Positions 1,181 to 60,558 of a stretch of 64,000 nt of DNA are shown here, in pieces. The notes beneath the pieces are model-generated. The model made no database searches. It saw only the letters and a program-made list of their open reading frames with translations, and was not told the DNA's origin. Numbering within the stretch: position 1 is the stretch's first letter; each line of letters opens with the position of its first letter. Made by a program: the position numbers and the translations under genes. The stretch comes from Escherichia coli O157:H7 (GTDB lineage Bacteria > Pseudomonadota > Gammaproteobacteria > Enterobacterales > Enterobacteriaceae). The DNA is taken from NCBI RefSeq assembly GCF_013167455.1, contig NZ_CP038328.1. One strand, written 5' to 3'.

Positions 1181-3475
1181 ATGAAGGTAGATATTGATAC
1201 CAGCGATAAGCTGTACGCCGACGCATGGCTTGGCTTTAAAGGTACGGACTGGAAAAACGAAATTAATGTCCGCGATTTTATTCAACATAACTATACACCG
1301 TATGAAGGCGATGAATCTTTCCTCGCTGAAGCGACGCCAGCCACCACGGAATTGTGGGAAAAGGTGATGGAAGGCATTCGTATTGAAAACGCAACCCACG
1401 CGCCGGTTGATTTCGATACCAATATTGCCACCACAATTACCGCTCATGATGCGGGATATATTAACCAGCCGCTGGAAAAAATTGTTGGCCTGCAAACGGA
1501 TGCGCCGTTGAAACGTGCGTTACACCCGTTCGGTGGCATTAATATGATTAAAAGTTCATTCCACGCCTATGGTCGTGAAATGGACAGTGAATTTGAATAT
1601 CTGTTTACCGATCTGCGTAAAACCCATAACCAGGGCGTATTTGATGTTTACTCACCGGATATGCTGCGCTGCCGTAAATCTGGCGTGCTGACCGGTTTAC
1701 CAGATGGCTATGGCCGTGGGCGCATTATCGGTGACTATCGCCGCGTAGCGCTGTATGGCATCAGTTATCTGGTGCGTGAACGCGAACTGCAATTTGCCGA
1801 TCTCCAGTCTCGTCTGGAAAAAGGCGAGGATCTGGAAGCCACCATCCGTCTGCGTGAGGAGCTGGCAGAGCATCGTCATGCGCTGTTGCAGATTCAGGAA
1901 ATGGCGGCGAAATATGGCTTTGATATCTCTCGCCCGGCGCAGAATGCGCAGGAAGCGGTGCAGTGGCTCTACTTCGCTTATCTGGCGGCAGTGAAATCAC
2001 AGAACGGCGGCGCGATGTCGCTGGGCCGCACGGCATCGTTCCTGGATATCTACATTGAGCGCGACTTTAAAGCTGGCGTACTCAATGAGCAGCAGGCACA
2101 GGAACTGATCGATCACTTCATCATGAAGATCCGTATGGTGCGCTTCTTGCGTACGCCGGAATTTGATTCGCTGTTCTCCGGCGACCCAATCTGGGCGACG
2201 GAAGTGATCGGCGGGATGGGGCTGGACGGTCGTACGCTGGTGACCAAAAACTCCTTCCGCTATTTGCACACCCTGCACACTATGGGGCCTGCACCGGAAC
2301 CTAACCTGACCATTCTTTGGTCGGAAGAATTACCGATTGCCTTCAAAAAATATGCCGCGCAGGTGTCGATCGTCACCTCTTCCTTGCAGTATGAAAACGA
2401 CGATCTGATGCGTACTGACTTCAACAGCGACGATTACGCGATTGCCTGCTGCGTCAGCCCAATGGTGATTGGTAAGCAAATGCAGTTCTTTGGTGCACGC
2501 GCTAACCTGGCGAAAACACTGCTGTACGCAATTAACGGCGGGGTGGACGAGAAGCTGAAGATTCAGGTCGGGCCGAAAACGGCACCGTTGATGGACGATG
2601 TGCTGGATTACGACAAAGTGATGGACAGCCTCGATCACTTCATGGACTGGCTGGCGGTGCAGTACATCAGCGCGCTGAATATCATTCACTACATGCACGA
2701 CAAGTACAGCTACGAAGCTTCGCTGATGGCGCTGCACGATCGTGATGTCTATCGCACCATGGCGTGCGGCATCGCGGGCCTGTCGGTGGCAACGGACTCC
2801 CTGTCTGCGATCAAATATGCCCGCGTGAAACCAATCCGTGACAAAAACGGCCTGGCGGTGGACTTTGAAATCGACGGTGAATATCCGCAGTACGGCAACA
2901 ACGACGAGCGCGTAGACAGCATTGCCTGCGACCTGGTTGAACGTTTTATGAAGAAAATTAAAGCGCTGCCAACCTATCGCAACGCCGTCCCTACCCAGTC
3001 GATTCTGACTATCACTTCTAACGTGGTGTACGGCCAGAAAACCGGTAACACGCCGGACGGTCGTCGCGCCGGAACACCGTTCGCGCCGGGCGCTAACCCG
3101 ATGCATGGTCGTGACCGCAAAGGTGCCGTGGCCTCATTGACGTCGGTGGCGAAACTGCCGTTCACCTACGCCAAAGATGGGATCTCGTACACCTTCTCAA
3201 TCGTCCCTGCGGCGCTGGGCAAAGAAGATCCAGTACGTAAAACCAACCTTGTCGGCCTGCTGGATGGGTATTTCCACCACGAAGCGGATGTCGAAGGCGG
3301 TCAACACCTCAACGTCAACGTAATGAATCGGGAAATGCTGCTGGATGCCATCGAGCACCCGGAAAAATATCCTAACCTGACAATCCGTGTCTCTGGCTAC
3401 GCCGTGCGCTTCAACGCACTGACCCGTGAACAGCAGCAGGATGTTATTTCACGTACCTTTACCCAGGCGCTCTGA
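1181..3475 (+). CDS. tdcE: 2-ketobutyrate/pyruvate formate-lyase, glycyl radical enzyme
   Basis: 764 aa ORF; C-terminal glycyl radical motif RVSGYAVRF and active-site Cys-Cys (IACCVSPM) visible in the translation; length equals K-12 TdcE. Confidence 0.93.
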
Positions 3476-13037: not shown

Positions 13038-13219
13038 ACTCTCCACTGCGCCACTCAGGCTGCTGATTGTTTTTTTGTGCAAGGGCGCGGTATTAGCGTC
13101 GTTGCTGTCGATGGAGAGAATCATAAACGTGGTGAATGATGATTGTTAGCAAGGAAAACTGTCAAAAATCTTCAAAAAATTTGATGGGTAAGGCCGGAAT
13201 GGCTCCGGCCAGAGGGAAG

Positions 13220-13519
13220 TTAACCGCGAAGCTGTTGCTGCTTGAGGGTCGTTTTAACCAGACGCCAGGCGCTCCATACGCCAAAACCGCGTCTGGCCCA
13301 GCGGACCAGCATATTAGGATGGCGAATCGTCCAGATCGCCATCACGCTACTGCCAACCAGCGCCCAGGAGCGCAGACTTAGCAGCATATTCCAGCGACGA
13401 TCGTAAGCGCCTGTTGCCTCCAGCCATTCACGACGACTGGCAGAAAGATCCAGCCGTTGTTGCTGGATCTGGCTAAGCAGTTGCGCCTTACGTCGTTCAC
13501 GTTCGACTTTACTGCTCAC
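13220..13519 (-). CDS. yqjK: Small membrane protein YqjK (GTG start, overlaps yqjE 3' end)
   Basis: 99 aa from GTG at 13519 preceded by GAGGAGGA RBS; the 133 aa ORF-track version is an over-extension running into yqjE. Confidence 0.7.
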   Translation of the reverse strand: MSSKVERERRKAQLLSQIQQQRLDLSASRREWLEATGAYDRRWNMLLSLRSWALVGSSVMAIWTIRHPNMLVRWARRGFGVWSAWRLVKTTLKQQQLRG

Positions 13520-13913
13520 GGGACTCCTCCTCGAGCAGCTGCCGATCGTTTGCCAGCTCATGGCGTGTATGGCGCAGCAAGGTGGATTTACGCGATTTAC
13601 GTAACGTCCAGATACCGCCAATCAGTGCCAGTAGCAGCAACACCACGGTGGTGGCAATCATCGCATTCAGGCGATATTGCGGATCAACCGCCCAAATAAT
13701 TAGCACCATCAGGCTCATAAGACCAAATGCAGCGAAAAGCATCGTCAGGCCCAGCATCAGTAAAAGTTGAAAGAGATTAGCTTTTTCCTCTTCCAGCTCA
13801 ACCACCGCCAGCCGCAGACGTGTTTCCACCATTTCAACCATGATGGAAACAATTCGCTGCCCGATGCCCAGAACGCTTTTACCGGGCCCTTGCGCGTGAT
13901 GAGTGTCCGCCAT
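13509..13913 (-). CDS. yqjE: Inner-membrane protein YqjE
   Basis: ATG at 13913 (MADTHHAQGPGKS...), 134 aa; hydrophobic core; immediately follows yqjD. Confidence 0.8.
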   Translation of the reverse strand: MADTHHAQGPGKSVLGIGQRIVSIMVEMVETRLRLAVVELEEEKANLFQLLLMLGLTMLFAAFGLMSLMVLIIWAVDPQYRLNAMIATTVVLLLLALIGGIWTLRKSRKSTLLRHTRHELANDRQLLEEESREQ

Positions 13914-13915
13914 AA

Positions 13916-14221
13916 TTAACGACGCGACAGCAGAACGCCGAGCACTACACCGATTGCAGCGCCAATGCCCACGCCCGTCCATGGATTTTCACGCACATAC
14001 TCATCGGCACGCGCCGCCGCGACACGGGTTTGTTTGGCGATGGCATCACCGGTTTCACCCAGGCGATAACGGCTCTGTTTCAGTGCCTGCTCCGCTTTGC
14101 TACGAATCTTACTCAACTCTTCTTTCGACTTCTCGCCAGATGAGCTAAGCACCTCTTCCAGCGTATCGGAAAGGGATTTCAACTCAGCACGCAGATGTTC
14201 CGTAGTGTGTTCTTTCGACAT
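13916..14221 (-). CDS. yqjD: Ribosome-associated membrane-anchored protein YqjD (ElaB/YgaM/YqjD family)
   Basis: 101 aa, charged helical N-terminus with C-terminal TM segment (GVGIGAAIGVVLGVLLSRR). Confidence 0.85.
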   Translation of the reverse strand: MSKEHTTEHLRAELKSLSDTLEEVLSSSGEKSKEELSKIRSKAEQALKQSRYRLGETGDAIAKQTRVAAARADEYVRENPWTGVGIGAAIGVVLGVLLSRR

Positions 14222-14258
14222 AGTTTTCTCCAGGTGAGTAAGTAGTGACTATTGTGAG

Positions 14259-14627
14259 TTAGTAGTCGCGCGCTTCCAGCTTTTTCAGCTCTTCCTGCGC
14301 TTCTGCCAGTTTCCGTTCGCGTTTGGCAATCTTATCGGCATCGCCTTTTTGCTTCGCCTCGGCTAAATCTTGCTGGCGTTCCGCCACCTCATCTTTCTGC
14401 TTTGCGATTTTCTTCTGATGATCGGCACGCAGCTGGCTATCTGAACAGTTGGCCCGGACTTCACTCAGGGCTTTATTCAGACCGTCAATACGATTCTGGT
14501 TTTGGTGTTTTTCGGCATAGCTGATCTCCTTAAGGATATTTTGCTCCTTTTCCTGACACAGGGTAGTGGCATAACTACCGGCACTAAGAGCAAAAAGAGA
14601 AACAGCTAAAGCGATGCGGTATTTCAT
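14259..14627 (-). CDS. yqjC: Periplasmic DUF1090 protein YqjC
   Basis: ATG at 14627 (MKYRIALAVSLFALSAGSYA signal peptide), Lys/Glu-rich coiled-coil-like mature region; 122 aa. Confidence 0.8.
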   Translation of the reverse strand: MKYRIALAVSLFALSAGSYATTLCQEKEQNILKEISYAEKHQNQNRIDGLNKALSEVRANCSDSQLRADHQKKIAKQKDEVAERQQDLAEAKQKGDADKIAKRERKLAEAQEELKKLEARDY

Positions 14628-14773
14628 TCTTGAACCTTCCATTGTGATTCGGACCTATTACAAAGGAACGATTGTCCAGACAACGAAGCGGTAGTGTTAA
14701 CCACCGCCTCATTAATCATAGACAGTTACGGTGAAATCACCAAAGTGAGTGATCTGTTTCGGACAACAGGAAG

Positions 14774-15823: not shown

Positions 15824-16167
15824 TCATTATTCCTGGTGAATCGGTTAACGCCACGCTGGTTTTAAAAGATGCACTACCGCAATGTTATTGCTGTTTTGGT
15901 ATGTTCTGCGGGTTTGATACATCAACACAGCCTGAACTATTCCCTGTTAAATCGTGAGATAAGAAAGCATTCAAAAACATAAATTCAAATTGAATCTAAT
16001 TGTAACAAAGGTCAACGTTGTTCGTTATCAAAATTACATGTCCGTGGAGTCTGATTTTGCTGAATGCAGGGGAGGGTGGCGAGAGGATTTACACAGGCTG
16101 ACACTTTATACTTTTCGCTTACCGACGAGACAAACAGGCGCGTCGCAGCGCCTGTCGGACAGGTATT

Positions 16168-32062: not shown

Positions 32063-32452
<390 letters not shown>

Positions 32453-48020: not shown

Positions 48021-48024
48021 ATCT

Positions 48025-48099
48025 GGTGGCCCCTGCTGGACTTGAACCAGCGACCAAGCGATTATGAGTCGCCTGCTCTAACCACTGAGCTAAGGGGCC
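48025..48099 (-). tRNA. ileX: tRNA-Ile2 (anticodon CAU, lysidine-modified; K-12 ileX)
   Basis: Minus-strand sequence GGCCCCTTAGCTCAGTGGTTAGAGCAGGCGACTCATAATCGCTTGGTCGCTGGTTCAAGTCCAGCAGGGGCCACCA folds as a cloverleaf; encoded CCA end; anticodon loop CTCATAA. Confidence 0.9.
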
Positions 48100-60431: not shown

Positions 60432-60558
60432 GTAGGCCGAATAAGGCGTTCACGCCGCGTCCGGCAATCAACGCTTGATGCGACGCTTGCGCGTCTTATC
60501 AGGCCTACAACTGTCGTTGACATGTAGCCGGATAAGGCGTTTACGCCGCATCCGGCAA
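60432..60558. repeat. BIME: three REP palindromes in alternating orientation
   Basis: GTAGGCCGAATAAGGCG...; TGATGCGACGCTTGCGCGTCTTATCAGGCCTAC; GTAGCCGGATAAGGCGTTTACGCCGCATCCGGCAA. Confidence 0.75.

Follow-up and report, generated by a model that had tools for sequence, protein, structure and literature searches.

The window considered here, a stretch of 64,000 nucleotides (nt; 64 kb) of Escherichia coli O157:H7 DNA from contig NZ_CP038328.1, matches E. coli O157:H7 chromosomes at 100% identity, and its gene content runs from tdcD through ygiF. It includes a block of four genes on the minus strand, yqjC, yqjD, yqjE and yqjK, flanked by mzrA and yqjF (Table 1). Together they form the O157:H7 allele of the known yqjCDEK locus of E. 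coli. A gap of 37 nt separates yqjC from yqjD, only 2 nt lie between yqjD and yqjE, and the last 11 nt of yqjE are shared with yqjK, as read from the sequence and from the list of open reading frames (ORFs). RefSeq annotation, made with the PGAP pipeline, assigns identical boundaries to all four coding sequences (CDSs) in the 100%-identical E. coli O157:H7 genomes. Such close packing is a normal operon trait, since the window holds further 4-nt overlaps at higB-higA, ebgA-ebgC and ttdA-ttdB.

The comparative set consists of the window and 80 Enterobacteriaceae loci (81 sequences), the retrieved loci having 63-96% YqjK identity. Their sampling used a 12-sequence alignment, which restricted the genome sample to Enterobacteriaceae; more distant relatives were sampled separately, via the contigs that encode them. 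The order C-D-E-K is kept in 80 of the 80 retrieved loci. The coordinates, gene identities and operon order that an earlier note on this DNA had proposed are matched base for base by the sequence reading, ORFs, Pfam, RefSeq, the 80 orthologous loci and the literature. The locus is already annotated and published, and the earlier observation, which is correct, restates that annotation and literature; its description of a poorly understood stationary-phase module is likewise in keeping with published work (PMC10746276; bioRxiv 10.1101/2024.08.16.608256).

All four products match Pfam families far above the gathering thresholds. YqjC belongs to DUF1090 (PF06476, E=1.5e-34; score 118.8 bits, gathering cut-off 24.4; profile positions 4-110 of 110), and its hydropathy profile shows a signal-peptide-like hydrophobic N-terminal segment at residues 5-23. 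YqjD combines DUF883 (PF05957, E=4e-13) with DUF883_C (PF19029, E=1.4e-15) and carries a C-terminal transmembrane (TM) segment at residues 81-99; it is a C-tail-anchored ribosome-hibernation factor that binds ribosomes and inhibits translation (bioRxiv 10.1101/2024.08.16.608256; PMC10746276). YqjE matches Phage_holin_3_6 (PF07332, E=3.5e-21; score 75.8 bits, gathering cut-off 28.4) and has two TM peaks, at residues 58-76 and 84-102. YqjK matches its own family, PF13997 (E=4.5e-25; score 88.3 bits, gathering cut-off 28.1; profile positions 1-73 of 73), and is strongly basic, with a net charge of +13 in a family that ranges from +9 to +18 in about 95 amino acids (aa). Its only hydrophobic stretch, in the centre, is borderline as a TM helix (Kyte-Doolittle 19-mer score 1.35, family median 1.3), and the AlphaFold2 model consists of two long helices broken at Pro68 (predicted local distance difference test score 82, predicted template modelling score 0.36). 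The gene identities given in the earlier note are supported; for YqjK, this basic protein with its marginal segment lends the label "small membrane protein" weak backing. A role of YqjE as a phage-lysis holin was considered and, on genomic context, rejected: in the 80 loci as well as in distant relatives the gene shares a core chromosomal operon with yqjD and yqjK, and its surroundings contain no lysis genes. Judged by this neighbourhood, "holin" is a family name only.

The Shine-Dalgarno (SD) sequence of yqjK is embedded in yqjE, as the earlier note had proposed. The motif GAGGAGGA occupies positions 13525-13532, 5 nt upstream of the yqjK GTG, and the anti-SD duplex of -11.8 kcal/mol is the strongest of the four genes. 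An energy this low is reached by just 0.9% of the 20-nt windows in the operon, and the SD is thus more than a chance occurrence. The hexamer GGAGGA is present in 58 of the 81 loci and GAGGA in another 12, mostly spaced 5-9 nt from the yqjK start. The codons that form it belong to the conserved YqjE tail LLE(E/D), which raises the alternative that GAGGAGGA merely follows from an acidic C-terminus (LLEE/LLED) and has no SD action. The motif is indeed built of Glu and Asp codons of that conserved peptide, and Buttiauxella-type loci, which use GAA and so have the SD weakened to GGAAGA, still keep yqjK. Against this stands the choice of codon: the Glu codon at the SD position is GAG in 67 cases and GAA in 13, compared with 244 and 325 elsewhere in yqjE (Fisher p ~3e-12, phylogeny ignored), and the spacing to the start remains within 5-9 nt in most loci. 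The GAG enrichment suggests selection on a synonymous site at the SD, and an explanation by the peptide alone is considered improbable.

A valid start codon is found at the homologous yqjK position in all 81 sequences (GTG in 39, ATG in 39, TTG in 3). The E. coli frame is open upstream as far as a TTG at 13621, with an ATG at 13561 within this extension, and for that reason YqjK gene calls are inconsistent: public protein sets contain versions of 99, 113 and ~123-124 aa, among others. Initiation at ATG 13561 (113 aa) or TTG 13621 (133 aa), as implied by a number of automatic gene calls, draws on this open frame and on these longer database versions, and is nonetheless very improbable. Neither codon has an SD (+1.9 kcal/mol at ATG 13561 and -1.5 kcal/mol at TTG 13621), and in 63 of the 81 loci an in-frame stop lies 6-36 nt (<42 nt) upstream of the conserved start, so that longer forms are impossible in those genomes. 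An exhaustive profile-free search yielded 133 representative YqjK relatives. At 26-63% identity their lengths are 91-101 aa and the alignments are colinear, beginning at residues 1-10; both these family N-termini and the Pfam domain boundaries match the 99-aa form. The ratio of nonsynonymous to synonymous substitution rates (dN/dS) is 0.06-0.22, and variability by codon position (0.17, 0.10 and 0.37) peaks at the third, so that yqjK is by these measures under purifying selection. GTG 13519 is favoured because SD strength, orthologous loci, family N-termini and coding selection agree on it; RefSeq places the start there as well. The comparative evidence confirms the GTG 13519 start predicted in the earlier note and the 99-aa form, the calls of 113 to ~124 aa being over-extensions.

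The 11-nt overlap itself, which the earlier note had also described, is present in the window sequence and in RefSeq. Among the 81 sequences, the commonest geometry between the yqjE stop and the yqjK start is a 4-nt overlap of the RTGA type (45 loci), followed by overlaps of 1 nt (14), 8 nt (10) and 11 nt (6), a 2-nt gap (5) and a 32-nt overlap (1). Thus in 80 of 81 loci the junction of yqjE stop and yqjK start falls in the range from a 2-nt gap to an 11-nt overlap. Within this set the 11-nt form is confined to Escherichia (the window and five further Escherichia loci, E. albertii included), and the junction alignment shows that Escherichia is one base shorter than the RTGA type between SD and start (alignment A3, column 37). 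As a result of this one-base shift the yqjE frame passes the former TGA and ends at a TAA taken from yqjK codons 3-4. Because it is restricted to Escherichia and differs from the RTGA type by a single base, the 11-nt overlap is a derived, lineage-specific state, matching a 1-nt deletion. In distant YqjK relatives (26-44% identity) the trio of DUF883, holin_3_6 and YqjK genes is kept where the contig reaches far enough, and the E-K junctions, as called, comprise a 2-nt gap and overlaps of 4, 4, 8, 20, 4 and 8 nt. As some of these relatives keep a tight junction with little or no SD at yqjK, the closeness of stop and start is the conserved feature. Conservation of the overlap across Enterobacteriaceae, which the earlier note had named as a check, is therefore found for the closeness, and is found neither for the 11-nt length, an Escherichia trait, nor for the GTG, which is exactly as frequent as ATG.

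Two individual junctions, both near positions 2966-3018 of their loci, may be described separately. The 32-nt overlap belongs to Enterobacter sp. ENT03 (L063), an outlier in which the yqjE frame continues beyond the usual stop position. Escherichia albertii (L004) keeps the 11-nt overlap, with ATG in place of GTG and a weakened SD, GAGGAGAG; here the choice of start codon and the strength of the SD may balance out.

The junction one gene upstream, between yqjD and yqjE, was overlooked in the earlier note. The yqjE start is always ATG, and it follows the yqjD stop after 2 nt in 71 of the 81 loci and after 1 nt in 9. No SD precedes yqjE in any of the 81 loci (anti-SD duplex median +0.7, best -2.5 kcal/mol). 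Since an SD is lacking and the start lies 2 nt past the yqjD stop, initiation at yqjE probably requires ribosomes that terminate at yqjD. The YqjE N-terminus MADTHHAQGPGK has been detected by N-terminomics, and its start is backed by REPARATION only, being flagged neither by Ribo-RET nor by INRI-seq (PMC13245402 Table S1). For YqjD, the N-terminus MSKEHTTEHLR was likewise detected and the start is also backed by Ribo-RET and INRI-seq (PMC13245402 Table S1). Detection of the YqjE N-terminus without a flag in the latter two methods would fit an initiation that depends on upstream translation, and yqjD-yqjE is a stronger candidate than yqjE-yqjK for obligatory termination-reinitiation.

The minimum-energy fold computed for E. 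coli places the SD in a loop and pairs yqjE Leu-Leu codons with yqjK codons 2-3 and with UG of the GUG; the 5' arm of the stem is CUGCU (YqjE Leu-Leu codons) and the 3' arm AGCAG (YqjK codons 2-3). Similar stems can be drawn in several other genera, and the yqjK start codon is fully paired in only 17 of the 81 loci. A conserved hairpin around the yqjK SD and start was rejected as a selected structure: in a 76-sequence alignment, pairing amounts to 72.9% compared with 74.0% in shuffles, and covariation does not exceed the control.

Taken together, the most satisfactory explanation, held with high confidence, is that of the known yqjCDEK locus with yqjK starting at GTG 13519, an SD in the yqjE tail, and a plausible coupling to which de novo initiation would be added. 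The arrangement is that expected of a coupled pair: both genes lie on the same strand with the stop near the start in 80 of 81 loci, and the junction is tight in distant relatives as well. Coupling of yqjK translation to that of yqjE, which the earlier note had suggested, is plausible because stop and start are conserved close together, and from this geometry it is rated somewhat better than even. Ribosomes ending yqjE would be released onto the yqjK initiation region, tying YqjK synthesis to YqjE synthesis, and the strong yqjK SD would add de novo initiation. The same logic would apply more strictly one gene up, where the SD-less yqjE would rely on ribosomes terminating at yqjD. The outcome would be that YqjD (a tail-anchored ribosome-hibernation factor), YqjE (two-TM) and YqjK (basic, helical) are co-produced as one conserved module. 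Within this account, the coordinates, start, SD, conservation and coding selection come from the present analysis and the promoters, CsrA control and YqjD function from the literature; coupling and any D-E-K complex are what we infer.

Several points weigh against this explanation. The yqjK SD is strong enough that it would allow independent initiation; the junction region has a folding z-score of -1.2 and its putative start-occluding hairpin shows no covariation above shuffled controls; and the synonymous-codon test is uncorrected for phylogeny. Global mapping of transcription start sites (TSSs), as cited in PMC10746276, predicts additional ones ahead of yqjE and of yqjK. No direct experimental mapping of the yqjK start was found in the start-site datasets searched: the YqjK N-terminus is not in the TRAINSPOTTER N-terminome (PMC13245402 Table S1), in which YqjD and YqjE are listed, and the INRI-seq and Salmonella riboproteogenomics supplements gave no hit. 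This missing peptide, in the single N-terminome table examined, is also what speaks for yqjK as a spurious ORF that is not translated. Its absence is, however, expected, because the tryptic N-terminal peptide would be no more than (M)SSK, too short for detection, and the low dN/dS with its third-position peak, the Pfam match (E=4.5e-25), the 133 representative relatives and the conserved synteny all oppose such a reading, which the evolutionary signal effectively refutes.

A weightier alternative is that yqjK is translated independently through its own SD, the overlap reflecting compaction plus a 1-nt deletion in Escherichia, with no regulatory role. The SD energy, highest in strength among the four genes, fits this view, as do the predicted additional TSSs (cited in PMC10746276) and the failure to find a conserved occluding structure. 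Overlap length, moreover, varies freely among genera (a 2-nt gap; overlaps of 1, 4, 8, 11 and 32 nt), and Escherichia is set apart from the common RTGA type by the single-base gap in column 37 of alignment A3. What is hard to explain, if closeness is irrelevant, is that the stop stays near the start in 80 of 81 loci and in distant relatives, some of which have little or no SD. Independent translation is accordingly given roughly one chance in three in our judgement, behind coupling. A more elaborate form of coupling would make yqjD-E-K a graded chain, in which CsrA would gate yqjD, yqjE would be obligatorily reinitiated, and yqjK would be translated by virtue of closeness and a strong SD, fixing the stoichiometry of a hypothetical YqjD-YqjE-YqjK membrane complex. 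This proposal is speculative and rather unlikely; if it were true, the basic (+13), all-helical YqjK might have a part in holding hibernating ribosomes at the inner membrane or in setting them free.

Table 1. Features of the yqjCDEK locus, in window coordinates.
Feature	Position	Strand	Details	Basis
yqjC CDS	14259-14627	-	ATG, 122 aa	ORF list, Pfam DUF1090, RefSeq annotation
yqjD CDS	13916-14221	-	ATG, 101 aa	ORF list, Pfam DUF883 + DUF883_C, RefSeq annotation
yqjE CDS	13509-13913	-	ATG, 134 aa	ORF list, Pfam Phage_holin_3_6, RefSeq annotation
yqjK CDS	13220-13519	-	GTG, 99 aa	ORF list, Pfam YqjK, RefSeq annotation
yqjE/yqjK overlap, 11 nt, GTGAGCAGTAA	13509..13519	-	yqjK GTG 13519-13517; yqjE stop TAA 13511-13509	RefSeq
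yqjK Shine-Dalgarno, GAGGAGGAG	13524..13532	-	Glu-Glu-Glu codons of the YqjE C-terminal tail	
yqjD stop / yqjE start	13911..13918	-	TAA-TT-ATG, 2-nt gap, no SD	sequence and 81-locus comparison
Sigma-S promoter of yqjC / yqjCDEK	14709..14720	-	-10 region tCTATGATt and TSS	published TSS position mapped onto the window
Internal sigma-S TSS zone of yqjDEK	14322..14326	-	CCAAA, within the yqjC coding sequence	published TSS mapped onto the window
GC-rich hairpin	13192..13210	-	GGCCGGA-N5-UCCGGCC, 10 nt past the yqjK stop	RNA fold

Transcription of the locus is driven by two sigma-S-dependent promoters, one upstream of yqjC (TSS at -82 from the yqjC ATG) and one inside yqjC that drives yqjDEK (PMC10746276). 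Both published TSS positions and their -10 elements are located at the corresponding positions of the window. The yqjC TSS is an A at 14709, preceded by CTATGATTAATG, and the stretch bearing the -10 element reads CTATGATT. The yqjDEK TSS, published at -105 to -101 from the yqjD ATG and given as "CCA ... AA" (PMC10746276), agrees with window bases 14326-14322 (CCAAA), which are preceded by GATAAGATT. The earlier note was right about the gene order of the operon; its picture of a simple single operon does not stand, owing to this internal promoter (PMC10746276). A generic sigma-70 promoter and terminator scan found neither of the two sigma-S promoters, nor a terminator after yqjK. The GC-rich hairpin that follows yqjK has no adjoining U-run, and the terminator scan was silent on it; it is a possible 3' end or stabiliser, and not a canonical intrinsic terminator. 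Beyond it lies a promoter-like site of yqjF, at 13165-13136.

CsrA represses at the ribosome-binding sites of yqjC and yqjD, the only two places in the locus where the published work defines CsrA sites (PMC10746276). The GGA motifs of the yqjK SD region (13502-13545, minus strand) fall in the loop of a predicted hairpin and resemble CsrA binding sites, so that the yqjK SD might be a further, putative site. No yqj entries occur in the CsrA CLIP-seq (cross-linking immunoprecipitation sequencing) supplementary files searched, and Rfam reports no RNA family in the yqjC-yqjK region.

Upstream of the block, mzrA starts 3 nt past the yqjA stop, a further tight junction, and directly upstream of yqjA a gene for a 27-aa small protein, yqiM, is annotated at 15845-15928 on the minus strand. 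Elsewhere in the window, the tRNA at 48024-48099 (minus strand) is called tRNA-Met (anticodon CAT) by ARAGORN, as against tRNA-Ile in RefSeq; it is probably of the ileX type, in which modification of the CAU anticodon allows AUA to be read. Three intergenic matches to Rfam naRNA4 (CssrE), at 32115-32296 and 60435-60505 on the plus strand, are taken to be repeat elements of the repetitive extragenic palindromic (REP) type.

The details added here are minor: the confirmed 99-aa start, the lineage-specific 11-nt overlap and the SD-less yqjE junction. They have little importance beyond annotation hygiene, in which the 99-aa GTG form of YqjK is preferred and the calls of 113 to ~124 aa are treated as over-extended, and they single out the SD-less yqjD-yqjE junction as the place where coupling may be obligatory. 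Both yqjE and yqjK accompany a ribosome-hibernation factor as its conserved partners. Knowledge of how their synthesis is tied to that of YqjD would help in the design of clean, non-polar single-gene mutants.

The trpE-trpD and trpB-trpA genes are among the classical coupled pairs of E. coli, with overlaps of the ATGA/TGATG type. Like them, yqjE and yqjK are same-strand neighbours in which the stop lies a few nt from the start and the downstream SD is inside the upstream CDS. They differ in that the yqjE-yqjK overlap is 11 nt in Escherichia, against the commonest 4 or 1 nt (the values in most other genera), and in that dependence of yqjK on upstream translation is a prediction. The yqjCDEK/yqjDEK genes of E. 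coli K-12 (b3097-b3100) have the same order, boundaries and promoter positions as those of the window, with no substantive difference, and the published study does not analyse the yqjE-yqjK or yqjD-yqjE junctions (PMC10746276). In Pseudomonas aeruginosa, the PA3040-PA3042 operon combines a YqjD-like gene of the DUF883 family with a YqjE-like one and another small gene, the ORFs being <15 bp apart, and both stationary phase and envelope stress induce it; PA3042 is reported to have no recognised domain and to be limited to P. aeruginosa and P. paraeruginosa (PMC11302039). This operon shares the YqjD-like and YqjE-like genes with yqjCDEK and is without a DUF1090 gene. YqjD is the archetype of the YqjD/ElaB/YgaM family, in which ElaB and YgaM are later duplications in Enterobacterales, and genes resembling yqjE and yqjK are reported as its conserved partners in synteny (bioRxiv 10.1101/2024.08.16.608256); the D-E-K trio seen here at distant loci confirms these published partners.

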